This document shows, one piece after another, positions 9,667 to 28,372 of a DNA stretch of 32,345 nt. The notes beneath the pieces were generated by a model that saw only the letters and a list, made by a program, of their open reading frames with translations, did not search any database and had not been told where the DNA came from. The stretch lies in assembly GCA_043822305.1 (NCBI GenBank), contig JBDRBU010000077.1, positions 1 through 32,345 on the forward strand. The letters are read 5' to 3'. The translations under genes and the position numbers were made by a program. Position 1 is the first letter of the stretch; each line of letters begins with the position of its first letter. This DNA is from Candidatus Firestoneibacteriota bacterium (lineage in GTDB: Bacteria > Oederibacteriota > D2-FULL-39-29 > JBDRBU01).

Positions 9667-10748
9667 ATAATTTCCCTTATGGCATCTAATATTTCTTTTC
9701 TTGTATCCACTTTGCTTATTTTTTTAAAATTCTCTTTGAAATTTTCAAGTATATCTTCGTTCTTTATTAATTTTATTACCAAGACTTTCAGATTTTCAGA
9801 ACTTATTTCTTTTTCATTTAGAAGTATAGCACAATTATTTTTAACTAAAATTTCTGCATTATAAAATTGATGATTAGAAGAAGCCGCTGGATATGGTATA
9901 ACTATTGCCGGTAAATTACATTTGATTATCTCGGCAATAGTACATGCACCCGCTCTACATATTATTAAATCAGTAACAGCATATACTTCCTCAATGTTTT
10001 TAAAAAAGGGCATGATTAAAATCTTTATATTTAAATCTTTTACCATGTTTTTACAATGTTCATAATCTTTCAAGCCTGTCATCCAAACAATTTGTATACT
10101 TTCGTTTTTCAATAATTTTACAAAATTCAAAAATACGATGTTTAAATTATGAGCCCCTTGACTTCCTCCTATTAAAGTTACCGTCCTTTTAGAATGTTCC
10201 AGTCCTAACTTATCAACACATTCTTTTCTGTTTAAAGTTCCTATACTTTCTCTAACTGGATTACCTGTCCAAATTACCTTTGCTTTCGGAAAAAATCGGA
10301 CAGCAGTAGAATCACCTATAAATATTTTTTTGGCTAATCTAGATAAAATTTTATTGGCTAAACCAGCTACTGCATTTTGCTCATGCAAAATAATTGGATA
10401 ATGTAGAAACCATCCAGAAACAACCACTGGCACACAAACATAACCCCCTAAACCAATTATTAAATCTGGTTTAAAAGTTTTAATTACTTTCATTGATTGA
10501 AATGTCCCCTTTAATAATTTAAAAAAATTTAATAAATTTTTTAATGATATCTTTCTTAACAACTTGCCACTTTCCACTCCAACAAAATTAAACTTTTCCC
10601 TTAAAATTATACTTTCTTCCATTCCATCTTTTGTTCCAACATATAAAATCTCTATATCCTTCGTTTCTTTTTTTAACATATGTCCTATGGCGATACCCGG
10701 ATAAATATGACCTCCTGTTCCGCCACAACTAATAATAACTTTTTTCAT
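9663..10748 (-). CDS. murG: Lipid II GlcNAc transferase MurG
   Basis: GGTGGHIYP, GGY, HEQN, GNPVR, GGSQGA, HQFYNA. Confidence 0.98.
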   Translation of the reverse strand: MKKVIISCGGTGGHIYPGIAIGHMLKKETKDIEILYVGTKDGMEESIILREKFNFVGVESGKLLRKISLKNLLNFFKLLKGTFQSMKVIKTFKPDLIIGLGGYVCVPVVVSGWFLHYPIILHEQNAVAGLANKILSRLAKKIFIGDSTAVRFFPKAKVIWTGNPVRESIGTLNRKECVDKLGLEHSKRTVTLIGGSQGAHNLNIVFLNFVKLLKNESIQIVWMTGLKDYEHCKNMVKDLNIKILIMPFFKNIEEVYAVTDLIICRAGACTIAEIIKCNLPAIVIPYPAASSNHQFYNAEILVKNNCAILLNEKEISSENLKVLVIKLIKNEDILENFKENFKKISKVDTRKEILDAIREII

Positions 10749-11859
10749 TTTTAATTTTCGAAATATTTAGTAAAATTCCTATGGCGATCATATTCATTAT
10801 TAATGAAGAACCGCCATAACTTATAAAAGGCAAAGTCATCCCTTTAGTTGGAAGTAATCCAGTGACAACACTCATATTCATAAATGCTTGTAATCCAATA
10901 TAAGAAGTAATTCCGGTAGCTAAAAGTTTTCCAAAAACTTCATTTGTATTTAAGGCTAAATTAATCCCTTTCCATATTATTAAACCGAATAAAATCAAAA
11001 TACATGTTACTCCTATTAGACCAAGTTCTTCAGCAATAATAGCAAAAATAAAATCAGTATGTGCTTCTGGTAAATAAAATAATTTTTGTGTTCCCTGACC
11101 AAGTCCTTTACCCATAAAACCTCCTGAACCAAAAGCAATAAAAGATTGAACTATTTGAAATCCAACACCCCTGGGATCCTTCCAAGGATCTAAAAATGCC
11201 ATTATTCTCTTTAATCTATACCCGGCACTAACTATCATAATAAATGCGACGGGCAAAGAAGATAAGAAAAATAAAAAAATATGACCTAACTTTACTCCCC
11301 CTACAAAAAGCATGATAATTCCCAATATTCCTATTAAAAAGATCGAACCTAAATCAGGTTGTATTATAAGTATTCCAAAAATAATTCCCATAATAACAAG
11401 ATATGGTAAAAAACCTTTTATAAAGCTTTTCATATATTCATGTTTACGAAAGATTGCTTCCGCGATGTAAATTATAAATGCTAATTTTACAAATTCACTC
11501 GGTTCAAAATTAAATCCAAAAATCTGTATCCATCTTCTTGCTCCCCCTCCTGCTTTTCCAATGTGTGGCACAAAAACAAGACACAAAATCACTATAGATA
11601 TTAAAAACAAAGGTCTGGCTATATCTTTAAACTTTTCATAGTTAAAGTTTTTAAAAAAAATTAACCCTAAACTCCCAAGTAGTATCCAAAAAATTTGTTT
11701 TCTTAAAAAATAAAAAGAATTTCCAAACTTATCATATGCGTAAATAGCACTTGAACTAAAAACCATAACAACACCAACAAACAAAAGCACTATGACTATT
11801 GTGATAAGTAAACCCCGCACCTCCTGGTACGTGGGTAAACCTTCTATTCTTGTCTTCAA
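10729..11859 (-). CDS. ftsW: SEDS peptidoglycan polymerase FtsW, with a 9-aa repeat-derived N-terminal insert
   Basis: GARRWI, EPSEFVK, QPDLGS, LPEAHTDFIF, PFISYGGSS; TTG start with SD AAGGAG. Confidence 0.97.
   Translation of the reverse strand: MKTRIEGLPTYQEVRGLLITIVIVLLFVGVVMVFSSSAIYAYDKFGNSFYFLRKQIFWILLGSLGLIFFKNFNYEKFKDIARPLFLISIVILCLVFVPHIGKAGGGARRWIQIFGFNFEPSEFVKLAFIIYIAEAIFRKHEYMKSFIKGFLPYLVIMGIIFGILIIQPDLGSIFLIGILGIIMLFVGGVKLGHIFLFFLSSLPVAFIMIVSAGYRLKRIMAFLDPWKDPRGVGFQIVQSFIAFGSGGFMGKGLGQGTQKLFYLPEAHTDFIFAIIAEELGLIGVTCILILFGLIIWKGINLALNTNEVFGKLLATGITSYIGLQAFMNMSVVTGLLPTKGMTLPFISYGGSSLIMNMIAIGILLNISKIKNEKSYY
11808..11840 (+). repeat. GTAAACCCCG palindromic element, 27-bp unit, in frame in ftsW
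   Basis: gtaaaccccgcacctcctggtacgtgggtaaac; GTAAACC at both 11808 and 11835. Confidence 0.85.
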
Positions 11860-11875
11860 TTTTTATTTACTCCTT

Positions 11876-11905
11876 TAGGAGTCGGGGTCGTCCCTAACCC
11901 CGACA
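11876..11905. repeat. GC-rich hairpin GTCGGGGT/ACCCCGAC in the murD-ftsW spacer
   Basis: 8-bp perfect stem (11881-11888 with 11897-11904), 8-nt loop; single copy in the window. Confidence 0.5.
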
Positions 11906-11909
11906 TACA

Positions 11910-11985
11910 CACGCAGGCTCGCACCCGCTTCGCGGTGCATTCCTAATTATTTATTTACATTAATGAAAATCAAGTCTGCGACTAC
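11910..11985 (-). repeat. GTAG REP-like element with a ~52-bp insertion in its loop; GTAG contains the murD stop
   Basis: Arms cacgcaggct and aagtctgcgactac match the intact copy at 3066-3090. Confidence 0.75.
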
Positions 11986-13367
11986 ATTTCACTTTCCTCT
12001 TTAATTTTTTTAACAGTCTCTTTAAAAACTTTCCCTCTTTCTTCGTAATTTTTAAACATATCAAAACTTGCACAACCAGGTGAAAGTAAAATTATATCAT
12101 TAGGAACAGATACTTTATATGCTTCTCTTACTGCTTCTTCCAAATTTATTGATTCAATGATATCAACATATCCTTCTAATGCATTTTTTATCTCTTTTTT
12201 TGCTTCGCCTATTAAAATAAGTTTCTTAACCTTTTTTTTCACAATATCTCTTAATTCTTCAAAATTACCTTTTTTATTTCTTCCACCAGCAATCAGCACA
12301 ATAGGTTCATCATAACTAAGTAAAGATTTTTCCACAGCAAAAATATTTGTACCTTGAGAATTATTGATAAATTTAACCCCATTGATCTCTGCTACAAATT
12401 CTTGTCTATGCTCAACTCCTTGAAATTTTTTTATAACATCAGACATTACTTTGATTTCAACATCATGAATATATCCTATTAAAGAAGCAACCATTATGTT
12501 TTCTAAATTATGCAAGCCCTTTATGATTACTTCTTCTTTATTGCAAACTGAAACCTCTTCATTACCAACCCTTATTTTTATCACACCATCATTATCCAGA
12601 TAAACCCCTTCTTCAACTTTAGAAGTACTGCTGAATAAATAAATTTTTGACCTTGCCATTCCAGAAAACAGCGGGGTAAATCTATCATTTGCATTAAGTA
12701 TTAAAATATCCTTCTTTTCCTGATTTTTAAATATCATTGACTTAGCTTCAACATATTCTTGAATATTCTTATATCTGTTCATATGATCAGATGAAACATT
12801 TAAAATAACTGCAATATCTGGTTTAAAATCTTTAATGGTTTCAAGTTGAAAACTACTTAGTTCAACAACATATATTACATTTTCTTCATTATTTCCATTT
12901 GCAACTAAGGATGTTAATGGCTTTCCTATATTGCCTCCTGTTTTTACTTTTCTGCATGCGCAACCTTCTTTTAAAATATCACTTAAAAGTGTAACAGTTG
13001 TAGTTTTCCCCTTTGTCCCTGTAATTCCAACAACCTGCCCTTTCAGAAAACGATAAGCAAGCTCAACTTCACTAATTACATCAATATTTTTCTCTATTAA
13101 TTTACTTAAAGGAATTACATCTGATGGAACTCCCGGAGAAATAATTATTTTATCTGCATTAAGTAATATTTCTTCTGTATGCCCACCTAAATCAAACTTA
13201 AAATCTTCTTTATTTTCTAACATATTCATATACTCTGTTAATTCGTTTTCTTTCCTTAAATCACTTATGGTGATATGTGCACCTAATTTTTTTAATAACT
13301 TAGCCGCAGATACTCCACTCTTACCTAAGCCTAAAATTACTATCCTTTTATCTTTAAAATCTTCCAT
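11982..13367 (-). CDS. murD: UDP-MurNAc-L-Ala--D-Glu ligase
   Basis: GLGKSG, SPGVP, GTKGKTTT, GGNIG, ELSSFQL, LSPGCASFD. Confidence 0.98.
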   Translation of the reverse strand: MEDFKDKRIVILGLGKSGVSAAKLLKKLGAHITISDLRKENELTEYMNMLENKEDFKFDLGGHTEEILLNADKIIISPGVPSDVIPLSKLIEKNIDVISEVELAYRFLKGQVVGITGTKGKTTTVTLLSDILKEGCACRKVKTGGNIGKPLTSLVANGNNEENVIYVVELSSFQLETIKDFKPDIAVILNVSSDHMNRYKNIQEYVEAKSMIFKNQEKKDILILNANDRFTPLFSGMARSKIYLFSSTSKVEEGVYLDNDGVIKIRVGNEEVSVCNKEEVIIKGLHNLENIMVASLIGYIHDVEIKVMSDVIKKFQGVEHRQEFVAEINGVKFINNSQGTNIFAVEKSLLSYDEPIVLIAGGRNKKGNFEELRDIVKKKVKKLILIGEAKKEIKNALEGYVDIIESINLEEAVREAYKVSVPNDIILLSPGCASFDMFKNYEERGKVFKETVKKIKEESEM

Positions 13368-13381
13368 TTTTTTTCCTTTCT

Positions 13382-13407
13382 TGAACGGTTTAAAGACCGT
13401 TCACTAC
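13382..13407 (-). repeat. GTAG-footed REP-like hairpin, different stem sequence
   Basis: Minus strand GTAG-TGAACGGT-CTTTAA-ACCGTTCA, 5 nt after the mraY stop. Confidence 0.65.
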
Positions 13408-13412
13408 CAATA

Positions 13413-14495
13413 TTATCTTAATTTAAGTAAACTTAAACTTGCTAAAGAAATTATAATGACAATTATCCAGAATCTAACTACTATTTTTGTTTCCGGTATT
13501 CCATTTAATTCAAAATGATGGTGTAGTGGCGCCATTTTGAATATTCTCTTTCCAAAAAATCTAAAAGAAATGATTTGAAGTAATACTGAAACTGCCTCTA
13601 CAACAAATATTCCACCAATTAGAATTAGAAGTAACTCTTGTTTAATTAGAACTGCCACTAATCCTAATACTGCTCCTAAACTTAAGGATCCAACATCACC
13701 CATAAAAACAGAAGCAGGATGACAGTTAAACCATAAAAATCCTATACTTGCCCCAACCATAGAAGTACAAAATATAACCAACTCACCACTCTCCGGAATA
13801 TGTATGATTCTTAAATATTCACTAAACTTACTATGACCAACAAGGTAAGTTACAACTGTTAACGACAGTGTCGTAAAAATTAACGATCCTATAGCCAGAC
13901 CATCAAGTCCGTCTGTTAAATTCACTGCATTTGAAGAACCTACAATAACTATTCCAATAAATACAAAGTAAAAAAGTCCTAAATCGAGAGGGAATTTTAC
14001 TAATGGAATTTTTATATGGGTTTCATAATCTAAACTCACTGGATTATATGCTAAATAAATACATACAATTAATACACCAACTATCTGACATAGGAGTTTA
14101 TATCTTATAGGTATCCCTTTTGAAGTCTTTTGAATAAGTTTAAGATAGTCATCTATAAAACCTAATAATGCAAACCATAAAAATACGAACATTGTTAAAA
14201 TTATAAACCTATTCTCTATTTTTGCCCAAAGGAGTGTAGAAAGAATAACTGCAAACACTATCATTATCCCACCCATCGTAGGAGTGCCTGATTTAAGTTT
14301 ATGAGTTGATGGCCCATCATCTCTTATTGGCTGGTGGACATTCAGTTCCTTTAACTTTTTAATTACCTTATTTCCTATTAAAAAACATATTAGGATAGCA
14401 GTTAAGGCAGCATAAATAGCCCTAAAAGTAGAATATTTAAATACATAAAAAGCACCAAAATACTCATGTAAAGGATAAAGCAAATAATAAAGCAA
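13413..14495 (-). CDS. mraY: Phospho-MurNAc-pentapeptide transferase
   Basis: GTPTMGG, GFIDDY, NAVNLTDGLDGL, FMGDVGS, APLHHHFE; TTG start with SD AGGAGG. Confidence 0.99.
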   Translation of the reverse strand: MLYYLLYPLHEYFGAFYVFKYSTFRAIYAALTAILICFLIGNKVIKKLKELNVHQPIRDDGPSTHKLKSGTPTMGGIMIVFAVILSTLLWAKIENRFIILTMFVFLWFALLGFIDDYLKLIQKTSKGIPIRYKLLCQIVGVLIVCIYLAYNPVSLDYETHIKIPLVKFPLDLGLFYFVFIGIVIVGSSNAVNLTDGLDGLAIGSLIFTTLSLTVVTYLVGHSKFSEYLRIIHIPESGELVIFCTSMVGASIGFLWFNCHPASVFMGDVGSLSLGAVLGLVAVLIKQELLLILIGGIFVVEAVSVLLQIISFRFFGKRIFKMAPLHHHFELNGIPETKIVVRFWIIVIIISLASLSLLKLR

Positions 14496-14498
14496 GGA

Positions 14499-15929
14499 TT
14501 ACCTCCTCAAAATATTTTTCAACTTCAATACAATTTCTTCCATTTTCATCATTCTTGAGCCTTTTATTAAAACTACATCATCTTTTTTCAAAAAATTCCT
14601 TAACAGATTCACTACTTCATCTTTATTGTCAAAATGAAACATATTTTTTTTGTTCATCCCTTTCATCATTGCCCCTTTATTTACATTCTCACTTAATTCA
14701 CCCAATGTAATTAAAATATCTATATCACCATCCTTTATTAATGCACCTATTTCTTTATGAAAGTTTGCCTCTTTATGGCCTAACTCGGCCATATCTCCCA
14801 GAACTATTATTTTTCTTTGGCTATGCATATTCTTAAGTACTTTTATTGCTTCTCTTACAGAATCCGGATTTGCATTATATGTATCATCTATAATAAGGAC
14901 TTTCTTCATTTTAAACATCTCAAGCCTATGCGGTGAACTTATTTTAAAATCTTCCAATGCTTTTTTTATTATATTAATATTCATACCTAACGAAAAACTG
15001 GCTGACACGGCCGCCAGCGCATTATAAATATTATGCATTCCCAGAAGATGAAGATTAATAGTCTTCTTACTATTTAATATTCTTAAAGTAAACCCCGTAC
15101 CCTCTAGTGGTGCGTGGGTAAACCCCGCACCCTTTGGTCTGTTGGCAAAAATGCGACTAGCCCTTACATCCGCTTTATTTTTTATTCCATATGTTAAAAT
15201 TTTCTTATTTTTAACACTGGGTAAAGCCAATCTTAAATATTTATCATCAACATTAATAATTGCTGTCCCCTTTTCTTTTATTCCTCTGACTAAATCCATT
15301 TTTTCTTTAAAAACATTTTTCTCATTTCTAAAAAACTCTAAATGTGTTCTGCCTATATTAGTTATAATACCTATATCCGGTCTGGCTATCTCAAGCAATT
15401 CTTTTATCTCCCCTTTTAAGTTTGTTCCATACTCCAAGACAAGTAAGTTATATGAATAATCTAATTCAAGTATTGTCAAAGAAATACCTATAGAATTATT
15501 AAAACTTCCCTTTGCTTTCAAAACTTTATTTTCTTTACTTAAAATATGGGCTATTATGTCTTTTGTCGTAGTTTTACCATTACTACCAGTTACGCCTATT
15601 ATTTTTAAATCTTTAAATTTGGACAAATAATATTTTGATATACTTTTTAATGATTGTAGTGTGTTATGAACTTTAATAATTATTTTTGATTTTAATTCTT
15701 TAATGTTTTCTATTTCTTTTGAAATGATAATCCCTTTTGCACCTAACTTATCTACTTCCTTAATAAAATTATGTCCATCAAAATTCTTACCTTTTAATGC
15801 AATAAATAAATCATTTCTTTTCAAAGAACGACTATCAGTTGAAATCGAATCAAACCCATCTTCTTTATTGCCTTTTAAAAGGCTACCATGACAACACTTT
15901 AAAATCTCACCTACAAAGATTCTTTCCAT
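14499..15929 (-). CDS. murF: UDP-MurNAc-tripeptide--D-Ala-D-Ala ligase, with a repeat-derived insert
   Basis: STDSR, GSNGKTTTK, SFNNSIG, DDTYNANP, LGDMAELG, KGSR. Confidence 0.97.
   Translation of the reverse strand: MERIFVGEILKCCHGSLLKGNKEDGFDSISTDSRSLKRNDLFIALKGKNFDGHNFIKEVDKLGAKGIIISKEIENIKELKSKIIIKVHNTLQSLKSISKYYLSKFKDLKIIGVTGSNGKTTTKDIIAHILSKENKVLKAKGSFNNSIGISLTILELDYSYNLLVLEYGTNLKGEIKELLEIARPDIGIITNIGRTHLEFFRNEKNVFKEKMDLVRGIKEKGTAIINVDDKYLRLALPSVKNKKILTYGIKNKADVRASRIFANRPKGAGFTHAPLEGTGFTLRILNSKKTINLHLLGMHNIYNALAAVSASFSLGMNINIIKKALEDFKISSPHRLEMFKMKKVLIIDDTYNANPDSVREAIKVLKNMHSQRKIIVLGDMAELGHKEANFHKEIGALIKDGDIDILITLGELSENVNKGAMMKGMNKKNMFHFDNKDEVVNLLRNFLKKDDVVLIKGSRMMKMEEIVLKLKNILRR
15088..15154 (+). 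repeat. GTAAACCCCG element (30-bp unit) followed by a degenerate second copy, in frame in murF
   Basis: gtaaaccccgtaccctctagtggtgcgtgg then gtaaaccccgcacc...; GTAAACCCCG at 15088 and 15118. Confidence 0.85.
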
Positions 15930-17398
15930 ATGTCTTTTGATTTTAAGATCTCAGTAACAATTTCTTTATCATTAAAATGTATAATATTACTTCCAATAAT
16001 TTGATAATCTTCATGCCCTTTTCCGGCAATAACAACAACCTCGTCTTTTTGTGATAGATTTATTGCTTTTAAGATAGCTTCTTTTCTATCTTTTATTTCT
16101 TCGAAATTTTCTCCCACAATGCCTGATTTTATTTCTTTCATTATATCGGTAGGTTCTTCTGTCCTTGGATTATCAGATGTTAATATAACATAGTTTGCTA
16201 ATTTACTGGCAATACTTCCCATGATAGGCCTTTTACTTTTATCTCTATCTCCTCCACATCCAAAAACACAAATTATTTTTTTAGGGGTTAATTCTTTGAC
16301 TGAATTTAATAATTTTTCTAAAGCATCAGGAGTATGGGCATAGTCTATAATTATAGAAAAACCTGTCTTTGTACTTGTCCAATCAAATCGTCCTGGAACA
16401 TTTGAAACTTCCTCTAAACCAAGTTTTATTATTTCATTATCAATATTAAGCGCAAATCCAACTGAAGCAGAGGCAAGAGCATTATATACATTATATCTTC
16501 CTTTTAGCTTTAAATTCACAGGAAAACTTTTATCTTGATAAGTTATAATAAAACGTAGTCCATTTATCGAAGAATTTATATCCATAGCCCTAACTACCGC
16601 ATCTTTGGTTAAGCCATATGTGATAATATTCGCCTTGGTGTTTTCTAAGAAGTATTTAGAATAACTATCATCTAGGTTAATAACCGCACACCTGTTTATC
16701 TTTTTTGTTCGAATCTTATCCAAATTTGAAAATAATTTTAATTTATTTTTAATATAATCATCAAAAGTCTTGTGAAAATCCGAATGGTCTAAAGTTACAT
16801 TTGTAAACACAGCCATATCAAATTCACAGTAACTTACCCTGTGTAAAGCAAGAGCGTGTGAAGATACTTCCATCACACAGGAATCTGTTTTGTTTTTTAC
16901 CATTTTATTCAACATATCTTGTAAATCTAATGATTCTGGGGTGGTATTTTTTGCCTTAAAACTTTCTCCATTTATATCGTAACTGATTGTACCTATTAAC
17001 CCTACTTTTTCGCTATGCTTGTTTAAAATTGACCTTATTAAGTAAGATGTTGTTGTTTTGCCATTTGTACCAGTAATGCCTATTAATTTAAGTTTACTTG
17101 AAGGATGATTATAAAATTCATTTGATATATTAGCCAAAGCATCTCTTGAATCTTTAACATAAATTATGGTTATCCCTTCATCAAGATTTATTTCTTTTTC
17201 GGCTATAATCGCGGTTGCCCCTTTCTTTACAGCATTAGATGCATAATTATGGCCATCTACTTTAAAGCCAGGAATACAAACAAATAATGAATTTTCTTTT
17301 ACATCTCTAGAATCATATGATATACTCCTTATCATTTTATTTAAAGTTCCTCTAACCTTTATATAATTTAAATTATTAATAACTTCTGACAACATCAT
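15911..17398 (-). CDS. murE: UDP-MurNAc-dipeptide--meso-DAP ligase
   Basis: GTNGKTT, TTPES, MEVSSH, DYAHTPD, GCGGDRD; DNPR motif typical of meso-DAP specificity. Confidence 0.98.
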   Translation of the reverse strand: MMLSEVINNLNYIKVRGTLNKMIRSISYDSRDVKENSLFVCIPGFKVDGHNYASNAVKKGATAIIAEKEINLDEGITIIYVKDSRDALANISNEFYNHPSSKLKLIGITGTNGKTTTSYLIRSILNKHSEKVGLIGTISYDINGESFKAKNTTPESLDLQDMLNKMVKNKTDSCVMEVSSHALALHRVSYCEFDMAVFTNVTLDHSDFHKTFDDYIKNKLKLFSNLDKIRTKKINRCAVINLDDSYSKYFLENTKANIITYGLTKDAVVRAMDINSSINGLRFIITYQDKSFPVNLKLKGRYNVYNALASASVGFALNIDNEIIKLGLEEVSNVPGRFDWTSTKTGFSIIIDYAHTPDALEKLLNSVKELTPKKIICVFGCGGDRDKSKRPIMGSIASKLANYVILTSDNPRTEEPTDIMKEIKSGIVGENFEEIKDRKEAILKAINLSQKDEVVVIAGKGHEDYQIIGSNIIHFNDKEIVTEILKSKDIWKESL

Positions 17399-19073
17399 AG
17401 TTTTCTTTCTCCAAATATCTTAAAACTCTTTCACCTATTCTACTAAAAGCAGGGGCAGCCACACTTCCACCCCAATACACTTTATTTGGTTCATCTATAG
17501 AAATAAAAATTACTATTTTAGGGACATCGGCTGGAACAAATCCTCCGAAAGAAGCAACAAATTTATTAGTTGAATACTTTTTTGTTTTAGGATCGATTTT
17601 TTGTGCCGTACCCGTTTTTCCAGCAGCACTGTAACCAGGAATTTTTGCTTCTTTACCCGTACCATTTTCTACGGCGCCTTTTAAAATTTTCATCACCCTT
17701 TTGGCTATATCTTCACTTATAACTTGTCTTATTTCTTTTGGTTTGAACTCTTTTATTAAGTTATTTTGTCTATCTTTTATATATCTAACAATTAAAGGTT
17801 GCATTAACTTGCCTTTATTAGCCATGACACTAATTGCAGATACTAACTGTATTGGGGTTACACCAACTTCTTGACCTATAGAAATTGAGCACACAGATAT
17901 TTTTGACCATTTTTTAGGTTCTCTTAGTATTCCTCTTACCTCACCAACCAATTGTATGCCCGTTTTTTCTCCAAATCCAAACAATTTAGCATAATCATAC
18001 AATTTACTATTGCCTAATCTCATGCCTATCTTTGCTGTCCCAATATTGCTGGAATTTCCTATTACTTGTTCGAACTTGAGCATTTTATATTTTATATGAT
18101 CATTTATTTTATGATTGTAAATTTTCCATTCCCCATTTTCACAATTTATCATTTCATCTTCAGTGGTTATCGCTTCAGAGAGTGCTCCGGCTAAAGTTAC
18201 AATTTTAAAAACAGAACCAGGTTCAAAAAGCAAAGATATCGCCCTATTCTTCAAATACTGTTGTGGAAAATTATAAAAATTATTAGGATTAAAACTAGGT
18301 TGGTTGGCTAAAGCAAGTATCTCGCCACTATCTGGCTTCATAACAATTATTGTTGCTTCTTTTGGACTAAACTCATTGTTTACTCTTCTAAGTTCCTCTT
18401 CCACTATAGACTGTATCGCTTCATCTATGGTTAAATATACATCGTATCCATTATTAGAAGGTAAATATGTAGAATTACTAGAAATTATTTCTCGACCCTT
18501 AGCGTCTTTTACAACATTTAAGTAACCTTTTTTACCACATAAAAACTTATCTAAATAGTATTCTATCCCTTCCAATCCTTTGCCATCAATATCAACAAAT
18601 CCTAAGATATGTGCACACATCTCATCTTTTGGATAAAACCTTTTACTCTCACTAATTATATTTATACCTTTTAATTTCAACATTTTTATTTTTTTACCCT
18701 TTTCAAAAGATACTTTTCTGTCAATCCAAACAAAGGATTTGCCACAATTAAATTTTTTCAATAAGTCATCTTTACTTATTTTGAGTATATTGGATAGTTC
18801 CTTAGCCGTCTTAATCTTATTATTGATTTGATAAGTAATGGCATACACAGAAGGCACATCAACACTTATGGCTAATTCTCTTCCCTTGCGGTCATAAATA
18901 AATCCTCTTTCAGGAGTAATTTCTTCCGAGTCTAAATGTTGTTTGTTGGCCAAATTGTCAAGACTTTCATATGAAATAATTTGCAAATACAAGAATCGCA
19001 AAAATATGATTATTCCAAATATCACAAACAACCGGCTTAAAAACAATATTCTTGAATTCATTTTATTTTCCAT
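17376..19073 (-). CDS. ftsI: Class B penicillin-binding protein (FtsI/PBP3)
   Basis: RGFIYDR, GLEGIE, EPGSVFK (SxxK), SSN, KTGTAQ; ends without PASTA domains. Confidence 0.95.
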   Translation of the reverse strand: MENKMNSRILFLSRLFVIFGIIIFLRFLYLQIISYESLDNLANKQHLDSEEITPERGFIYDRKGRELAISVDVPSVYAITYQINNKIKTAKELSNILKISKDDLLKKFNCGKSFVWIDRKVSFEKGKKIKMLKLKGINIISESKRFYPKDEMCAHILGFVDIDGKGLEGIEYYLDKFLCGKKGYLNVVKDAKGREIISSNSTYLPSNNGYDVYLTIDEAIQSIVEEELRRVNNEFSPKEATIIVMKPDSGEILALANQPSFNPNNFYNFPQQYLKNRAISLLFEPGSVFKIVTLAGALSEAITTEDEMINCENGEWKIYNHKINDHIKYKMLKFEQVIGNSSNIGTAKIGMRLGNSKLYDYAKLFGFGEKTGIQLVGEVRGILREPKKWSKISVCSISIGQEVGVTPIQLVSAISVMANKGKLMQPLIVRYIKDRQNNLIKEFKPKEIRQVISEDIAKRVMKILKGAVENGTGKEAKIPGYSAAGKTGTAQKIDPKTKKYSTNKFVASFGGFVPADVPKIVIFISIDEPNKVYWGGSVAAPAFSRIGERVLRYLEKENYDVVRSY

Positions 19074-19082
19074 ATTTTCAGA

Positions 19083-19406
19083 CTACAACAATCTTAAAAT
19101 CGAACTTATTATCTTTTTAAAAATACATTTTACTTTATCCCAAAAACTTATCTCTTCTTTGTCTTCAAATAAAGTTATAGTTTCAAACTTATCAGGGGTT
19201 ACTAATCCTAATTCTTCCCTGGCTACTGTCTCTATTCTTTCTAAAGATTTTAATTTTGCTATTTCTATTCTTAAAATTTTATTCTCATTTGTAAGTTCTA
19301 TTTTTTTAAATTTAAGTTTATTAATTTCGTACCCTGTCTTTATACATTCCACATTTAAACCTATATAAAGTAAGGCTGATATTAATAATACAACTATTGT
19401 TTTCAT
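19083..19406 (-). CDS. ftsL: Cell division protein FtsL
   Basis: TM segment, coiled coil, SLERIETVAREELGL; between rsmH and ftsI. Confidence 0.85.
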   Translation of the reverse strand: MKTIVVLLISALLYIGLNVECIKTGYEINKLKFKKIELTNENKILRIEIAKLKSLERIETVAREELGLVTPDKFETITLFEDKEEISFWDKVKCIFKKIISSILRLL

Positions 19407-19434
19407 AGTAAGTATTCAGTAAACGCCCTCTAAT

Positions 19435-19484
19435 TTTTAATTCCCCCTTTTAATTCCCCCTTAATAAAGGGGGTTAGGGGGTTG
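19435..19484. repeat. CCCCCTT-AAT-AAAGGGGG type palindrome with a local tandem duplication
   Basis: ttttaattccccctt occurs twice, then cccccttaataaagggggttagggggttg, in the rsmH-ftsL spacer. Confidence 0.55.
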
Positions 19485-19489
19485 TTCTT

Positions 19490-20380
19490 TCATACCCTTT
19501 CTGCTACTCTTAATTTTGAACTTCTACATCTTGGATTAGAAAATACTTCTTCATAAGATGGAACAACTGGTTTTTTCGTTATAATTTTTAATATTTGATT
19601 TTCCGTTTTAGAATATTCATTAAAAAACCTTTTAACAATTCTATCCTCTAATGAATGAAATGAGATAATACATATTCTGCTACTTTCATTCATAAAATTT
19701 AGTGCTTTTTTTAAAGCTTCTTGCAAATTACCAAGTTCATCATTAACAACTATTCTTAACGATTGAAATGTTTTAGTTGCCGGATGAATTCTTTTATACC
19801 AAAATTTTTTTGGTAGGCTACTATGTATTACTTCAACTAATTCAAATGTGGTTTCTATTTCTTTCTTTTTTCTCTCTTTACATATATTCTCTGCAATTCT
19901 TCTTGAAAATCTCTCTTCACCAAACACTTTAATTATTTCTTCTATATCTTTTTCGGGTAGTTTATTAACCAAATCTTTGGCCACAAGATCTTGACTTTTA
20001 TCCATTCTCATATCAAGACTTGAATTATATTTAAAACTAAATCCTCTATCCTTTGACTCTAATTGAAATGAAGAAACTCCCAGATCAAATAAAATTCCAT
20101 CAATTTTTTCTACTTTCATCTCTTTTAAAATTTTATCTATATTTTTAAAGTTATCTTTTACAATAAATACCCTGTCTTTAAATTTTTTTAATCTTTCTTT
20201 TGCTATATTTAAAACTTCCAAATCTTTATCAATCCCTATAATTTTTATTTCTTTACCCGAATTTTCAAGAATATTTAAACTATGCCCACCTTCCCCCAGA
20301 GTAGCATCTACATATATTCCATTATCTTTTAAGTTTAAAAATCCAATAACTTCATTTAAAAGAACCGGGATATGTGTCAT
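19490..20380 (-). CDS. rsmH: 16S rRNA m4C1402 methyltransferase
   Basis: HIPVLL, DATLGEGGHS, DLGVSSFQL, LDMRMD, HPATKTFQ, SFHSLEDR. Confidence 0.98.
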   Translation of the reverse strand: MTHIPVLLNEVIGFLNLKDNGIYVDATLGEGGHSLNILENSGKEIKIIGIDKDLEVLNIAKERLKKFKDRVFIVKDNFKNIDKILKEMKVEKIDGILFDLGVSSFQLESKDRGFSFKYNSSLDMRMDKSQDLVAKDLVNKLPEKDIEEIIKVFGEERFSRRIAENICKERKKKEIETTFELVEVIHSSLPKKFWYKRIHPATKTFQSLRIVVNDELGNLQEALKKALNFMNESSRICIISFHSLEDRIVKRFFNEYSKTENQILKIITKKPVVPSYEEVFSNPRCRSSKLRVAERV

Positions 20381-20829
20381 TTCATAATTCCAAGGTCAAA
20401 TAACTTTTGAACTACATTTTCAAAAGGTTTATCTGATGTTTCTTTTACATAATTTAGCCATTTTTCTTTTGCCCATATTTCTATAATATTAAAGTAACCT
20501 ATAATGGCTACATCTTTATTTATTCCTATTTTATTTCTTAAATCAGAGGGAATAAATATTCTGCCTTGCTTATCTAATGTAGAATCTGAGGCATTAGCAT
20601 ATAACATTCTTATTATATATCTGGTATTTGCATCTGTCATAGGAAGAGTTTTTAATTTGTCTTCAAAATTTTTCCATTCATTAATAGGAAACACAAAAAG
20701 ACAATCATCAAATCCTCTAGTAACAACAAATTTTTCTATATACTTTTCTGCTAAATCTGAGCGGAATTTGGCCGGTAAAATAATTCTCCCTTTTTTATCT
20801 AAAGAATGTTGATACTCCCCCATAAACAT
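20377..20829 (-). CDS. mraZ: Transcriptional regulator MraZ
   Basis: MFMGEYQHSLDKKGRIILP and second repeat LDKQGRIFIP; first gene of the dcw cluster. Confidence 0.98.
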   Translation of the reverse strand: MFMGEYQHSLDKKGRIILPAKFRSDLAEKYIEKFVVTRGFDDCLFVFPINEWKNFEDKLKTLPMTDANTRYIIRMLYANASDSTLDKQGRIFIPSDLRNKIGINKDVAIIGYFNIIEIWAKEKWLNYVKETSDKPFENVVQKLFDLGIMK

Positions 20830-20838
20830 ATCTTTTCC

Positions 20839-20897
20839 CTCCCCTTTGCACCACTTTACTCCACTTCAAGTATACAAATATTTTGTAATCTTGTCAA
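20839..20897 (-). promoter_or_regulatory. dcw promoter with three MraZ boxes
   Basis: TTGACA (20897-20892), 17 nt, TATACT (20874-20869); then GTGGAG, GTGGTG, GGGGAG at 10-nt spacing, the known form of MraZ sites. Confidence 0.85.
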
Positions 20898-20905
20898 GTA
20901 TTTTA

Positions 20906-20934
20906 TTGATTTTTTTTATATTTTTTGATAAAAT
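20906..20934 (+). promoter_or_regulatory. Sigma70-type promoter for the Nudix gene, probably leaderless
   Basis: TTGATT-N17-TAAAAT with extended TG; ATG 7 nt downstream; no SD. Confidence 0.6.
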
Positions 20935-20941
20935 CTAATCT

Positions 20942-21424
20942 ATGAAAAACATGGTATTTAATGGGAAACTTATAAAAGTTTATAGTGTAAATAATAAAGA
21001 TCTTGTTATTCACCCTGGAGCATCTGTAGTAATACCCTTGATTTCAAAAGACAATATAATACTTGTGAAACAGTATAGATTTGCTATAAAAAAATGGACA
21101 TGGGAGGTGCCTGCTGGAACATTAAAATCTGAGGAATCTCCTTTAAGATGTGCAAAAAGAGAATTAGAAGAAGAAACAGGTTATAAAGCAGGAAAACTAA
21201 CAAAATTACTAAGTTTTTATTCATCTCCTGGATTTTTGTTTGAAAAAATGCATTTATTTCTTGCAACAGATTTGAAGATAGGAGTTTTAAATTTGGACGA
21301 AGACGAAAACATAAAAATTAAAGTATTTAACTTAAAAGAAATAGAAAAAATGATTTTTGAAAATAAGATTGTCGATGCAAAAACTCTTGTAGCCATCTTA
21401 TTTTTAAAAAACTTTCTAAAGTAG
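20942..21424 (+). CDS. Nudix hydrolase, ADP-ribose pyrophosphatase-like
   Basis: Nudix box GTLKSEESPLRCAKRELEEETG, plus HPGA, QYR, SPG, IVDAKT. Confidence 0.92.
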   Translation: MKNMVFNGKLIKVYSVNNKDLVIHPGASVVIPLISKDNIILVKQYRFAIKKWTWEVPAGTLKSEESPLRCAKRELEEETGYKAGKLTKLLSFYSSPGFLFEKMHLFLATDLKIGVLNLDEDENIKIKVFNLKEIEKMIFENKIVDAKTLVAILFLKNFLK

Positions 21425-21787
21425 AACTATAAGCCGAATTCTGTTTAAATGGCTATTTCTCTTTAGTATAAGTCACCTTATACTTTAAGCAACCTACCCA
21501 AGGGCAAAGCGGCACCACTTATTCCCTTCTATTTGGTCTTGCTCCGGATGGGGTTTGCCGTACACCATTTAGTTACCTAAACGGACGGTAAGCTCTTGCC
21601 TCACCTTTTCACCCTTACCCTAGACCTAAACAATAATGAACGGTTTAGGGCGGTTTATTTTCTGTGGCACTTTCCTACCCCGCACATTTATGTGCTGGGC
21701 CCTCGCATTACGAGGCATCCTGGCCTATGGAGTTCGGACTTTCCTCTCCCACCCTAAGGAGGGAGCAGCCATTCGTTCTACTTTAGA
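21415..21787 (-). ncRNA. rnpB: Bacterial RNase P RNA, probably type A
   Basis: Minus strand GAGGAAAGTCCGAAC, AGTGCCACAGAAA, GGGTGAAA, GGCAAACCCC, GGAGCAAG, ACAGAATTCGGCTTA; P4 and terminal P1 complementarity; exact ends approximate. Confidence 0.97.
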
Positions 21788-21853
21788 TAGTCTGGTTACT
21801 TTTGTAACCAACTATTCCTAATATTATTCATTTACATTATTGAAAGTCAAATA

Positions 21854-22558
21854 TCATATATATAATATTCTACCACAGTTTTCACAAAAAATTAAAGACT
21901 CGTATTTCTTTATTTCAATAATTACCTGTGCCCTTAAATTAATAAAACAACCATTACAAGAATTATTTACTACTTTTACGATCCCAACACCACCTAAATT
22001 TTGTCTGATATTATTATATGTATTTAATAATTCATTAGTTTCTATTTTTTTTACTATTTCTTCCTTATGTAACTTTAATTCATTCATCTGTTGGTCAATC
22101 TCCTGAATTTCTTTGTTGCATTTCTCCTCAATTTTCCTCAATTTATCTTCTTCCTCTTTTATCTCATCCTGTAATACATTCACTTTTTTCTTAACCTCAT
22201 CTTCATTTAACATTTTTGAAATAATATCTTCTTCTATCTTAGAAACATTTTCTTTAAGATAGGCCATCTCTTGTTGTACGGCTGAATATTCTTTATTGGT
22301 TTTAACAGAATACAACTGGCTTTGTAGTTTTATCATCTCACTATTTTTTGAGCCAAGTTCTAACTCAATCATCTTCTTGCTTTTTTGTAACTCTTCATTT
22401 TCCTTTTTTATTATTATCTCTTTATCTTGTTTATCTTTTATATTTAACTTTTGTTCGTCTAATATCTGAGGAATTTCCGTTTTTTTACCTTCCAATTCAT
22501 CTATTCTCGTATCCATTTCTTGCAGTTTTAATAACAACTCTAACTCATTCTTTAACAT
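21854..22558 (-). CDS. Coiled-coil protein with C4-type zinc ribbon (DUF164/CT398-like)
   Basis: LLKLQEMD start, long coiled coil, CNGC...CENCGRILY. Confidence 0.9.
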   Translation of the reverse strand: MLKNELELLLKLQEMDTRIDELEGKKTEIPQILDEQKLNIKDKQDKEIIIKKENEELQKSKKMIELELGSKNSEMIKLQSQLYSVKTNKEYSAVQQEMAYLKENVSKIEEDIISKMLNEDEVKKKVNVLQDEIKEEEDKLRKIEEKCNKEIQEIDQQMNELKLHKEEIVKKIETNELLNTYNNIRQNLGGVGIVKVVNNSCNGCFINLRAQVIIEIKKYESLIFCENCGRILYI

Positions 22559-22623
22559 TCTACCTCCATCTAATTATTATTATAACATAGATATCTTCAA
22601 TAATACAAATGTTTTCTACTTTT

Positions 22624-23262
22624 CTACTTTTTCTTCCAGTCTTCAATAAACTTCTTTACCCCTAAATCTGTTAATGGATGCTTAATCATAAGTTCTAAAA
22701 CAGATTTTGGAACTGTAACAATATTTGTTCCGGCTAATGCAACTTCAAGCACATGCAAAGGTGTCCTTACACTTGCGGCTAAAACCTGTGTTCTAAAATC
22801 ATAGTTCTTGTAAATTTTAACAATATCTCTTATCAAATTTGTCCCAGACTGTGTTTCATCATCTAATCTCCCCACAAAAGGAGTAATATAGTCAACACCA
22901 ACTTTAGCCGCTAAGATCGCCTGATTTGCTGAAAAAATCAGGGTAAAATTAGTTTTTATCCCTCTTTTAGAAAGGACATTAACTGCTTTTATCCCTTCCT
23001 TAATAAATGGAATTTTTATAATTATATTTTCACTTATCTTAGAAAACACTTCTGCCTCTTTAAGCATATCATTAATAGAAGTCCCTATGGGTTCAACATG
23101 TATTGGGCCATTAACTATTTTAGAAATCTCCCTTAGCGTTTTCATAAAATTCTTCCCTTCTTTAGCCAGTAAAGTTGGATTTGTTGTGACACCATCAATT
23201 AAGTTAAACTCGTTCATCTCCTTTATCTCAGATATATTAGCACTATCTAAAAATATTTTCAT
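22624..23262 (-). CDS. tal: Transaldolase (short TalC/FSA family)
   Basis: IFLDSA, GVTTNPTL, IKIP (Schiff-base Lys), PFVGRLDD, LAASVR, HPLTD; Glu in HVEP and Phe in PFVGR favour transaldolase over FSA. Confidence 0.88.
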   Translation of the reverse strand: MKIFLDSANISEIKEMNEFNLIDGVTTNPTLLAKEGKNFMKTLREISKIVNGPIHVEPIGTSINDMLKEAEVFSKISENIIIKIPFIKEGIKAVNVLSKRGIKTNFTLIFSANQAILAAKVGVDYITPFVGRLDDETQSGTNLIRDIVKIYKNYDFRTQVLAASVRTPLHVLEVALAGTNIVTVPKSVLELMIKHPLTDLGVKKFIEDWKKK

Positions 23263-23283
23263 ATTTCCTCCTGAATAACTATT

Positions 23284-23712
23284 TTATTTTTCTTCGATAT
23301 TTTTAATAAATTCTCTTGCTGTTACTATTTTGATATTCTTATATTTTTTTAAAGTAAGAATATGCTTATCACCACTTATAAGATAATCTGCATTAAATTT
23401 TTCAGCACATTCCAATATTCTATTGTCATAGTCATCATTTATAATTTTTAATTTTTTATCTGGCATGACCACCATTGAATTATTATTAATTAACTCAATA
23501 ATTTCCTTCGTTTGACTTAATGGCCATGAAAATTTATTAATCAAAATATATGTTATTTCATTTAATATTTCTTTAGATATTCCCAAATCAAATTCTTTCA
23601 GTTTTACTTGTTTAAAGATATCTTCAGGTAGTCCTCCTGAAAAAACAATCATGGATATAAAGATATTGGTATCGCAGACTATCTTAATTTTTTTCGTCTT
23701 TTCTTGCTTCAT
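23284..23712 (-). CDS. PIN-domain putative toxin (VapC-like)
   Basis: IVCDTNIFIS, ILNE, DDYDNRILECA, ISGDKHIL; overlaps the upstream small gene. Confidence 0.9.
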   Translation of the reverse strand: MKQEKTKKIKIVCDTNIFISMIVFSGGLPEDIFKQVKLKEFDLGISKEILNEITYILINKFSWPLSQTKEIIELINNNSMVVMPDKKLKIINDDYDNRILECAEKFNADYLISGDKHILTLKKYKNIKIVTAREFIKNIEEK

Positions 23713-23926
23713 GTATTATCCTTTCAACATCCTCTTCGGTTAAAATCCCTTTTGCTTTTGCTGCCAACGAAAGTTCTTTTTGTATTTGCTTAAATCTTTT
23801 CCATTCAATATATTCTTTTAATGCTTCCATCACTATACCACTAACAGTTGTCATTTCCTCTTTTTTAATCTTCTCAAGTTTTGATACTAACTCTGATGGC
23901 AAGGTAATACTTATTGCTGTTTTCAT
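23684..23926 (-). CDS. Ribbon-helix-helix (CopG-like) putative antitoxin
   Basis: MKTAISITLPSELVSKLE...SGIVMEALKEY; SD GGAGGTG supports ATG 23926 rather than 23941. Confidence 0.85.
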   Translation of the reverse strand: MKTAISITLPSELVSKLEKIKKEEMTTVSGIVMEALKEYIEWKRFKQIQKELSLAAKAKGILTEEDVERIIHEARKDEKN

Positions 23927-23943
23927 AAAAACCACCTCCATTT

Positions 23944-23977
23944 ATATTATTTTATCATATTATTTTATAATAGTCAA
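23944..23977 (-). promoter_or_regulatory. Toxin-antitoxin promoter with a tandem operator-like repeat
   Basis: TTGACT-N17-TAAAAT with extended TG; 12-bp direct repeat ATATTATTTTAT at 23944 and 23957. Confidence 0.65.
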
Positions 23978-24023
23978 GATCTTACGGCTTTCACTTTTCA
24001 CTGACTTTCACTGACAATTTGCC

Positions 24024-24052
24024 TTGTTTTTTGATGTAAATATATTTATAAT
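24024..24052 (+). promoter_or_regulatory. Promoter for the moaD-like gene, probably leaderless
   Basis: TTGTTT-N17-TATAAT; ATG 6 nt downstream; no SD. Confidence 0.55.
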
Positions 24053-24058
24053 ACTACT

Positions 24059-24331
24059 ATGGTAAATGTAAACCCCACATCCTCTGGTGGTACGAGGGTA
24101 AATATCAAACTATATGCAAGTTTAAAAAATATATTTAAAAAAGACTCTTTTTTTACAAAAGTGTCAAGCATTAATGAATCTATCTTAAAACTTGAGGAAT
24201 TATCCAATAAAAAATTAGATAAAAATACCTTCTTTATAGTTATCAATGGTCAGGTTATAACAAATTATAAAGACTATCAATTAAAAGAAAACGACACCTT
24301 ACATATATTCCCGGTGATAGCCGGGGGATAA
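24059..24331 (+). CDS. MoaD/ThiS family sulfur carrier, with a 10-aa repeat-derived insert
   Basis: IKLYASL, IVING, LKENDTLHIFPVIAGG with C-terminal GG; close to the AOR gene. Confidence 0.88.
   Translation: MVNVNPTSSGGTRVNIKLYASLKNIFKKDSFFTKVSSINESILKLEELSNKKLDKNTFFIVINGQVITNYKDYQLKENDTLHIFPVIAGG
24068..24102 (+). repeat. GTAAACCCC element, 30-bp unit, in frame in the moaD-like gene
   Basis: gtaaaccccacatcctctggtggtacgagggtaaa; GTAAA at 24068 and 24098. Confidence 0.8.
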
Positions 24332-24984: not shown

Positions 24985-25010
24985 ATATAAATCTCCTTGG
25001 AGAATTTTCT

Positions 25011-28349: not shown

Positions 28350-28355
28350 TTTTAT

Positions 28356-28372
28356 TCTGGTGCGTGGGTAAA
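28356..28372 (+). repeat. Right half of a GTAAACCCCG element
   Basis: tctggtgcgtgggtaaa; tggtgcgtgggtaaa is identical to the murF copy. Confidence 0.7.

Follow-up and report, generated by a model that had tools for sequence, protein, structure and literature searches.

The window analyzed here, a 32,345-nt contig from a metagenome-assembled genome (MAG) of a Candidatus Firestoneibacteriota bacterium, carries variants of one short GC-rich sequence inside three genes, namely ftsW, murF and a moaD-like gene. How does such a sequence come to lie in frame in all three, and what kind of element is it? We conclude that it is very probably a mobile element, one that inserted after divergence from the relatives considered below and is translated together with its host genes. 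That one unit consists of a single GC-rich hairpin plus TAAA, and that the family comprises non-autonomous mobile DNA elements of minimal size, is the description we favor, with modest confidence.

The TAAA-bounded hairpin family and its empty sites

The window constitutes contig C77 of the MAG, hereafter the host genome (2.15 Mb, 31.6% GC, 125 contigs). Loci were catalogued by fuzzy searches of this whole genome, and full or nearly full units were counted. The sequence-only reading of the window had predicted further genomic copies, and 35 loci comprising 42 units were recovered from 25 of the 125 contigs. The commonest form, of 30 nt, is represented by nine identical units, and such identical copies elsewhere in the genome suggest activity that is presumably recent. 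The other forms are 27 nt, a second 30-nt form with a different loop, and 33 nt; the loops differ by exactly three bases, and the core spans 22-26 nt across the family. When folded, a unit forms a 10-bp stem that takes in the final A of the left-hand TAAA as well as the T of the right-hand one, with one unpaired T bulging from the 3' arm and a loop of 7 nt in the 30-nt unit or 4 nt in the 27-nt unit. Folding energies of intact units, computed as DNA, are -10.1 to -11.1 kcal/mol, compared with -2.4 to -3.3 kcal/mol (sd ~1.5) for shuffled sequences. The unit had been described from the window as a GC-rich core bounded by GTAAA, and this holds for the copies found there, but it is better given as TAAA, a 9-bp stem with one bulged T, and TAAA.

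Empty sites had been predicted as well, and at all three window positions exact ones were found at the DNA level in a syntenic relative. This metagenome contig (L068, 19.4 kb) has the same gene order as the window, and its MurF and FtsW proteins are 68% and 81% identical to those encoded there. No copy of the element occurs in the whole 19.4 kb, and one intact (G)TAAA lies exactly at the ftsW and moaD insertion points. In ftsW, the relative reads GGTTTAC followed directly by TT, and the window has the unit between two copies of TTTAC; in moaD, the relative reads ATGTTAAATGTAAA followed directly by TGTT, and the window has the unit between two copies of GTAAA. Orthologues without the inserted peptide were likewise found for MurF, in that exactly the 10 residues are missing from relatives of 80% and 69% identity, and the insert columns are empty in all 67 aligned homologues. 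At the FtsW N-terminus, 38 of 41 aligned homologues do have residues in the insert columns, which is an artefact of variable-length tails slid under the insert; here, the nearest relative (81% identity, of the L068 type) is the one informative sequence.

The surviving copies occupy tolerant places, namely the N-terminal tails of FtsW and the MoaD-like protein and a beta-hairpin loop of MurF. The FtsW insert (residues 8-16) precedes both the Pfam domain (residues 17-370) and the first membrane helix, and the insert of the MoaD-like protein (residues 4-13) precedes the ThiS domain (residues 16-90). Mapping of the MurF insert onto a predicted structure, as the sequence-only reading had proposed, placed it in the weakest, low-confidence loop of the model. 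In this AlphaFold2 model (68 sequences; mean predicted local distance difference test score, pLDDT, of 93.4), the insert lies in a coil, residues 264-276, that separates strands 255-263 and 277-284. The blocks 261-270 and 271-280 average pLDDT values of 65 and 75, and the sole run below 50 comprises residues 268-270.

Most of the family resides in genes (29 of the 35 loci). The remaining six are short-frame or upstream sites, and two of these (a five-unit array on contig C27, and C100:49625) immediately precede a ribosome-binding site. Outside the window, 25 of 26 host open reading frames (ORFs) have Pfam domains, and the genes include those for KsgA, RimP, Fmt, the PolX polymerase, CheA, MoeA, RibF, AroE, the lipoyl synthase LipA, FtsK and TamB. 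A uniform measure of genic location was defined as an open frame of at least 150 aa across the site, which overcounts sites near gene starts. By this measure, 28 of 34 loci of the family are genic, compared with 90% of random genome positions. Three of four other hairpin families of the genome score 25/66, 13/40 and 3/12 (25-38%), and the fourth scores 7/16 (44%). At one locus (C34:14039-14953), the unit lies exactly between the G and FT of a prepilin-type N-terminus (KSGF-THAPLKGAGF-TLLELVV), duplicating the cleavage motif, and similar placements were seen at two loci of other MAGs (L012, L021).

Five of the six reading frames of the unit are free of stops, and one contains TAA. The 29 genic loci are read in four frames on both strands (14, 4, 7 and 4 loci), yielding unrelated peptides, which bears out the earlier view of a DNA feature rather than a peptide. 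The stop frame is used in none of the 29, an outcome with a chance of (5/6)^29 = 0.005 under random frames, and a fifth, Cys/Arg-rich frame is also used in none. It had further been proposed that copies survive in genes only when they are in frame. Within the host genome, all 24 units with TAAA on both sides are multiples of three in length (two or three of the 24 may be chance matches), whether genic or not; thus, the in-frame filter acts on which variants spread and is not visible for each insertion. A filter on single insertions was seen in other genomes, as described below. Absence of the stop frame, together with the multiple-of-three rule, argues that units are translated rather than removed.

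These observations bear on two other explanations. The units could be a selected feature, either as a peptide motif that is conserved or as a DNA or RNA hairpin that acts in cis (a regulator like the repetitive extragenic palindromes, REPs, or a gyrase or terminator site) needed by the genes that carry it. The members just upstream of ribosome-binding sites would suit such a role, and REPs are thought to act on RNA stability and supercoiling, according to the part of PMC3733652 that treats their function. We nonetheless consider selection for a function very improbable: four frames on both strands encode unrelated peptides, the functions of the host genes have nothing in common, pairing is being lost in the window copies, which is unexpected for a selected hairpin, orthologues lack the inserts, and Rfam contains no family matching the unit. 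The empty sites largely refute it. Still less credible is an artefact of assembly or binning. The MAG is in 125 contigs with an estimated contamination of 1.99%, but the units are in frame in 29 intact genes, the loci are spread over 25 contigs, the copies differ by point mutations, and the same design recurs in independent public MAG records.

The copies in the window

All three copies were located where the sequence-only reading had placed them, each in the form GTAAA-core-GTAAA, and the lengths given for them (27 nt at 11808, and 30 nt at 15088 and 24068) were verified (Table 1). Translation returned the peptides that had been stated: LPTYQEVRG in FtsW (minus strand, residues 8-16), the 10-residue insert FTHAPLEGTG in MurF (minus strand) and VNPTSSGGTR in the MoaD-like protein (plus strand, residues 4-13). 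Pfam agrees with the names that had been given to the host genes (FTSW_RODA_SPOVE, Mur ligase, and the ThiS/MoaD family). Allowing at most one mismatch, the 12-nt head GTAAACCCCRYA has four matches in the window versus 0.32 expected, a number that was reached in none of 100 shuffles. The 14-nt left half and the 14-nt right half also have four matches each, with 0.06-0.08 expected. Since these counts are far above expectation, the window copies are not chance matches.

The three copies differ from the consensus by 2, 2 and 4 substitutions. As DNA, the ftsW copy folds at -6.0 (top strand) or -7.4 (bottom strand) kcal/mol and the murF copy at -6.6 (top) or -4.9 (bottom) kcal/mol, so that the earlier designation as palindromes still fits these two as weak hairpins; it does not fit the moaD copy, which folds no better than shuffles (-2.0 versus -2.07 kcal/mol). 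Because substitutions are present and the hairpins are weakened, the window copies are taken to be old and decaying.

Two half-units were absent from the earlier list of three copies. One, in murF, comprises GTAAA, the left arm and part of a CTTTGG-type loop, and abuts the full unit, which is of the CTCTAGT type; thus, two subtypes stand side by side. The 21 nt upstream of the full unit, in the sense of the gene, are identical to the end of another unit subtype. This half-unit encodes PKGAGFT where the closest MurF homologue (80%) has PKGMKFT. We infer that two units may have inserted here and that 30 nt were then lost between a 9-nt loop segment and similar native P-K-G codons; this scenario of two insertions plus a deletion reproduces the murF sequence exactly. 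The other, a solitary right half-unit, is an exact match to the 14-nt right arm plus TAAA and lies in the spacer between an FGGY kinase gene and an aminotransferase gene.

Table 1. Units of the TAAA-bounded family in the window, and the genes that contain them
Feature	Coordinates	Strand	Description
ftsW unit	11808..11834	+	27 nt: GTAAA 11808-11812, 22-nt core 11813-11834; second GTAAA 11835-11839
murF unit	15088..15117	+	30 nt: GTAAA 15088-15092, 25-nt core 15093-15117; next GTAAA 15118-15122
murF left half-unit	15118..15139	+	GTAAA, left arm, part of CTTTGG-type loop; abuts full murF unit
moaD-like unit	24068..24097	+	30 nt, decayed: GTAAA 24068-24072, 25-nt core 24073-24097; GTAAA 24098-24102
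Solitary right half-unit	28355..28372	+	Loop, right arm, TAAA
ftsW host gene	10729..11859	-	376 aa; Pfam FTSW_RODA_SPOVE, E 1.3e-116
murF host gene	14499..15929	-	476 aa; Pfam Mur ligase domains; homologues named UDP-N-acetylmuramoyl-tripeptide--D-alanyl-D-alanine ligase
MoaD/ThiS-family host gene	24059..24331	+	90 aa; Pfam ThiS, E 5e-8

As judged from Pfam, the window carries a complete dcw cell-wall/cell-division cluster. A different GC-rich hairpin (GTCGGGGTCGTCCCTAACCCCGAC) from a family of about 40 copies genome-wide occupies the murD/ftsW spacer at 11881-11904. Bacterial RNase P RNA, class A, is encoded at 21414-21784 on the minus strand (272.9 bits), and the GC-rich hairpins near 21678 and 21746 are parts of this RNA, not members of the TAAA-bounded family. 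Beside the moaD-like gene, at 23284-23941 on the minus strand, a gene for a 142-aa PIN-domain protein overlaps a small ORF of 85 aa that lies upstream and has no Pfam match, an arrangement that looks like a toxin-antitoxin pair. A relic of a second TAAA-flanked hairpin family (stem CCCCGTTAGAGAA...) lies at 24995-25024, between the aldehyde:ferredoxin oxidoreductase and aldolase genes; one of its arms supplies AAGGAG just upstream of an ATG at 24984, and its stem type recurs in MAGs labelled as several phyla.

Target, orientation and candidate routes of mobility

The 35 loci were aligned on the element, and (G)TAAA, which the earlier reading had named as the target, proved to be part of a fuller consensus, AAAGTAAA. 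Upstream, positions -8 to -1 read A24 A29 A28 G27 T32 A32 A31 A30 of 35; downstream of the core, G31 T33 A28 A31 A31 of 35 are followed by no signal. As there is no signal past the 3' TAAA, the target information lies on the upstream side only. In 35 of 35 loci, the loop and the bulge have one and the same orientation relative to TAAA. A flank that departs from the consensus is usually paired with a consensus GTAAA on the other side (at least 12 loci).

Units also occur in head-to-tail arrays of two, three and five, with no spacing and a period of 30. The five-unit array on contig C27 is mixed, with four identical 30-nt units and one 27-nt unit. Other arrays (in murF, at C121:20264 and C51:10508, and on C118) finish with a unit that is truncated or degenerate, and in the TAAA orientation this unit is always the one at the 3' side. 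Mixed arrays, in which a 27-nt unit stands beside 30-nt units or, as in murF, two subtypes adjoin, argue for repeated insertion at the unit's own TAAA. Slippage or rolling copying would also be allowed by the runs of identical units and the 3'-truncated arrays. A CRISPR array was considered and rejected, as units abut with a period of 30 and have no spacers. The host genome has a CRISPR array elsewhere (C39:22528-23266; 12 repeats, period ~65 nt, repeat with a GC hairpin) that is unrelated to the unit. Readings as an integron attC or Xer site were dropped as well, no convincing likeness to the consensus sequences of such sites being apparent. At C62:1009-1095, there is a composite of ~85 nt in which a further small hairpin sits within a TAAA-flanked hairpin of the second family, which suggests that units of this sort insert into each other.

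IS200/IS605 elements have an imperfect hairpin with an unpaired base, are understood to rely on hairpin-directed cutting of a short sequence, and insert in one orientation next to a short specific sequence without a true duplication; they are found in bacteria and archaea and show a strong strand bias. REP/RAYT systems are understood as hairpin-guided single-strand transposition, as set out in part of PMC3733652. We hypothesize a related course of events for the TAAA-bounded unit. A new copy would be placed immediately 3' of (AAAG)TAAA, always in one orientation, and each copy would thus seem to be flanked by a direct repeat of 4-5 nt. The unit's own 3' TAAA would serve as a fresh target, giving rise to head-to-tail arrays. 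Variants of 27, 30 and 33 nt with five stop-free frames would propagate, and a gene receiving one would gain 9-11 codons without being broken. Movement would be carried out in trans by a strand-specific, single-stranded-DNA enzyme of the HUH/Y1 type (IS200/IS605 or RAYT-like), presumably encoded elsewhere in the genome, and one hairpin would specify the same cleavage sequence on both sides. The fixed orientation, the one-sided target, the bulged hairpin and an apparent duplication that matches the end of the element itself are the reasons for proposing an HUH-like mechanism, which by analogy with these systems we regard as an almost even possibility.

As had been noted, no transposase is present within the window (Pfam and Y1_Tnp scans). 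The expectation of an HUH/Y1 transposase flanked by the unit ends was not borne out; the host genome has seven Y1_Tnp matches, none of them flanked by the hairpin. Its Y1 genes comprise one IS200-type TnpA and five that are RAYT/TIRYT-like, of which C81 carries two and C51, C68 and C100 one each; one of the five forms a cassette with 20-bp inverted repeats. The RAYT/TIRYT-like protein at C68:4678-5007 is 66% identical over 216 aa to one from another carrier MAG (L157, on G045:C9); other pairs are 25-41% identical. The resident IS200-type element (149-aa TnpA; C64:26880-27425, with further copies on C2, C86 and C87 at contig ends) occurs several times, and its copies break the assembly. The hairpin at its right end reads CCTCGACGC-TCT-GCGTCGGGG and is followed by TAAT; the stem of this element (CGACGC/GCGTCG) differs from that of the unit, and only the right-end foot (CC.CG...CGGGG, then TAAT) resembles it.

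A classical miniature inverted-repeat element would account for some of the same features in another way. The stem arms, 9-10 bp long, would be terminal inverted repeats for a DDE transposase encoded elsewhere, and TAAA or GTAAA (or only AA, should the repeat include the terminal A-T pair) would be a target-site duplication. The fold takes in an A-T pair of the flanks, a direct repeat of 4-5 nt flanks nearly every copy, and non-consensus flanks match each other at two loci, with TTAA on either side at C5 and GTACA on either side at C118. However, a symmetric cut-and-paste element should land both ways, a deviant flank usually faces a consensus one, and target information is found upstream only. 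Furthermore, a terminal repeat of 9 bp is very short for a DDE transposase, and no longer element with these ends was found in the host genome or in 12 regions from five other MAGs. We consider a DDE-type element improbable, mainly because of the fixed orientation.

Spread could also have taken place without a dedicated transposase, in which case host replication or repair would have copied the hairpin strand or a small circle via (G)TAAA microhomology, with template switching, rolling-circle copying and slippage shaping the arrays. Rows of four, three and two identical units, and the several arrays that end 3' in a truncated or degenerate unit, are compatible with such copying, and no enzyme has been linked to the element. 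In addition, a 30-nt deletion between 9-nt repeats gives the murF junction exactly, provided that the ancestral P-K-G codons resembled the loop. On the other hand, a homology of 4-5 nt is little for repair-driven copying to 35 dispersed sites, the extended upstream AAAG consensus suggests protein recognition, and recurrence in MAGs labelled as many phyla, when neither search pattern matched in 40 genomes of the host's own phylum, is easier to reconcile with a transferable agent than with a universal host process. Copying by host processes is therefore unlikely in our judgment, though less so than a DDE-type element.

Several results weigh against a mobile, translated unit moved by an HUH-like enzyme. 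The matching variant flanks at C5 and C118 are among them, and sequence alone cannot tell a true target duplication from a TAAA carried by the element. The murF half-unit requires an extra event to explain. Translation of the units is deduced from frame statistics, and from these only. Across five other carrier MAGs there are 27 Y1_Tnp matches, and at the 10 loci that were inspected the hairpin flanks none of them. Y1 genes were found in 31 of the 40 relatives in which neither search pattern for the element matched; as they are equally common without it, co-occurrence is uninformative. When Y1 proteins were compared across genomes by BLAST, the best identity was 66%, in one of the five MAGs only. 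Head and tail pairs 60-5000 nt apart in the host genome proved to be arrays or unrelated pairs, with no longer parent element among them, and an all-against-all BLAST of the 4-kb regions around six copies in one MAG found only the ~33-nt hairpins in common. Finally, TAAA is found on the strand with positive GC skew at 16 of 35 loci, which represents no strand bias; this test is weak, as skew follows the coding strand. The GC skew of the host genome is very strong in 20-kb windows, with a median absolute value of 0.23. Since its sign at the 35 loci largely follows the coding strand, it is no marker of replication direction here, and frame selection confounds the test.

Occurrence in other genomes and relation to known repeats

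Among 40 genomes of the same order, class and phylum, no match was found to the TAAACCCCGCACC head or to TAAACCCC...GGGGTAAA, patterns beyond which divergent or bulged variants lie. A scan of one genome per species for the TAAACCCCGCACC head plus the right arm returned 60 stretches. In 25 of these, the 3' flank, which the search did not force, was again GGG(G)TAAA. The 25 TAAA-flanked units come from MAGs labelled Patescibacteria, Omnitrophota, Nitrospirota/Thermodesulfovibrionia, Elusimicrobia, WOR-3 and Gammaproteobacteria, and their stems are mostly perfect. The 11 units of 27 or 30 nt are all in frames open for 116-208 aa or to the edge of the locus, and 11 of the 14 units of 26, 28 or 29 nt are in frames of less than 95 aa. 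In five carrier MAGs, chosen because each had a match, TAAACCCC...GGGGTAAA has 1-11 matches each and the reversed control has none. A second conserved stem type (CCCCGTTAGA...) occurs in at least three of these five MAGs and also in the host genome. No match to the unit was found in plasmid and phage collections, and viral contigs gave none (0 matches).

A wider scan with TAAACCCCG-N12-24-CGGGGTAAA yielded at least 118 stretches, and 81 matches in 80 loci were examined. Those with a perfect stem of at least 7 bp (51 of the 81) were taken as true hairpins; the 30 with shorter stems, which are likely to be chance matches in GC-rich DNA, were set aside. Matches were scored as genic when at least 60 aa were open on both sides. 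Among the 51 hairpins so defined, 9 of 29 units with a length that is a multiple of three are genic, as are 0 of 22 units of other lengths. One clear hairpin is in a record labelled archaeal, where a binning error is possible.

The design occurs in MAGs labelled as many phyla, yet 40 genomes of the host's own phylum gave no match to the search patterns, a distribution that points to its mover having spread horizontally. A larger proposal, which we put forward tentatively and consider rather doubtful as a whole, is that a superfamily of single-hairpin mobile units of 26-38 nt (TAAA-CCCCG...CGGGG-TAAA, with GCACC and GTTAGA as its two widespread types of stem) extends across many phyla. An HUH-type enzyme moving horizontally would act on it, a single-stranded intermediate of ~30 nt and rolling copying would give arrays that end in partial units, and variants with a length that is a multiple of three would have specialized in coding sequence.

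The likeness to Rickettsia palindromic elements (RPEs) that had been pointed out, together with the difference in size, was confirmed. According to the sections of PMC10969869 that deal with them, RPEs are palindromic repeats of ~150 bp that lie in frame in unrelated, often essential genes, where they are translated as extra segments compatible with the fold, and each family encodes a conserved peptide. The TAAA-bounded unit, of 27-33 nt, is likewise a palindromic repeat in frame in genes (29 of 35 loci, none in the stop frame), but it has no fixed peptide and uses four frames. It is further set apart, going by the descriptions, by another host lineage, head-to-tail arrays and a defined TAAA target.

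REPs are described in the relevant sections of Di Nocera et al. 2013 (PMC3733652) as imperfect GC-rich palindromes of 20-40 bp with a GTAG or CGTC tag at the foot of the stem. They are mostly intergenic in that account, although in several species they lie inside genes and encode extra amino acids, and RPE-4 and RPE-6 are counted there as CGTC REPs; a Y1 (RAYT) transposase is suspected for REPs, and CGTC REPs are listed without an identified transposase. The TAAA-bounded family resembles them in its core of 22-26 nt, its 42 units, its folding at -10 to -11 kcal/mol and the short tag at the stem foot. In contrast to REPs, however, its tag is (G)TAAA on both sides as a direct repeat (27-32 of 35 upstream, 28-33 of 35 downstream) and not GTAG or CGTC on one side, and GTAG-tagged hairpin families exist separately in the host genome. 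It is also mainly genic, where the treatment cited above has REPs mostly extragenic, and its units form direct tandem arrays without spacing, unlike the inverted dimers of REPs. No RAYT gene is flanked by TAAA-bounded units, whether among the seven matches of the host genome or at the 10 loci in five MAGs.

By inference, the bulged hairpin, the fixed orientation and the one-sided short target also recall IS200/IS605 elements. Here, though, a single hairpin would serve as both ends, the stem is unlike the resident IS200-type ends, and no strand bias was seen. A classical miniature inverted-repeat element would have terminal inverted repeats and a target-site duplication; the unit has inverted arms of 9-10 bp and a direct repeat of 4-5 nt, and its flank variants rarely match between the two sides. 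It differs from such elements in having one orientation only and no parent insertion sequence with the same ends. The small dispersed repeats of cyanobacteria, said to have been described by Elhai et al. in 2008, are reportedly palindromic mobile repeats of ~21-27 bp that also occur in genes and are nested in each other.

Literature searches by topic and by motif strings returned no description of the TAAA-bounded family, the supplementary REP tables of PMC3733652 lying outside their scope. Some 13-nt strings had no match, and one inspected match to another string was a PCR primer. Thus, the kind of element is known, from RPEs and from REPs inside genes, and this particular family appears to be undescribed. 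Four features make it stand out: a minimal size, a preference for coding sequence, a clear target and a patchy distribution over phyla.

The family represents selfish DNA that lives mostly in genes (29 of 35 loci), including normally essential genes of cell-wall synthesis and cell division, and it does so because the length of a unit is exactly 9 or 10 codons and stops are nearly absent from it. With this family, the known lower bound on how small a mobile unit can be falls to one hairpin and four bases. In uncultured lineages, alignments of genes and proteins are inflated and distorted by such inserts, and annotation pipelines should recognize them. At the same time, the inserts show, in an experiment that nature has repeated, which protein loops can accommodate 9-10 extra residues. 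If the superfamily proves true, its members would be among the smallest transposable units known, and they would be a general source of new protein loops in uncultured bacteria, essential genes included.

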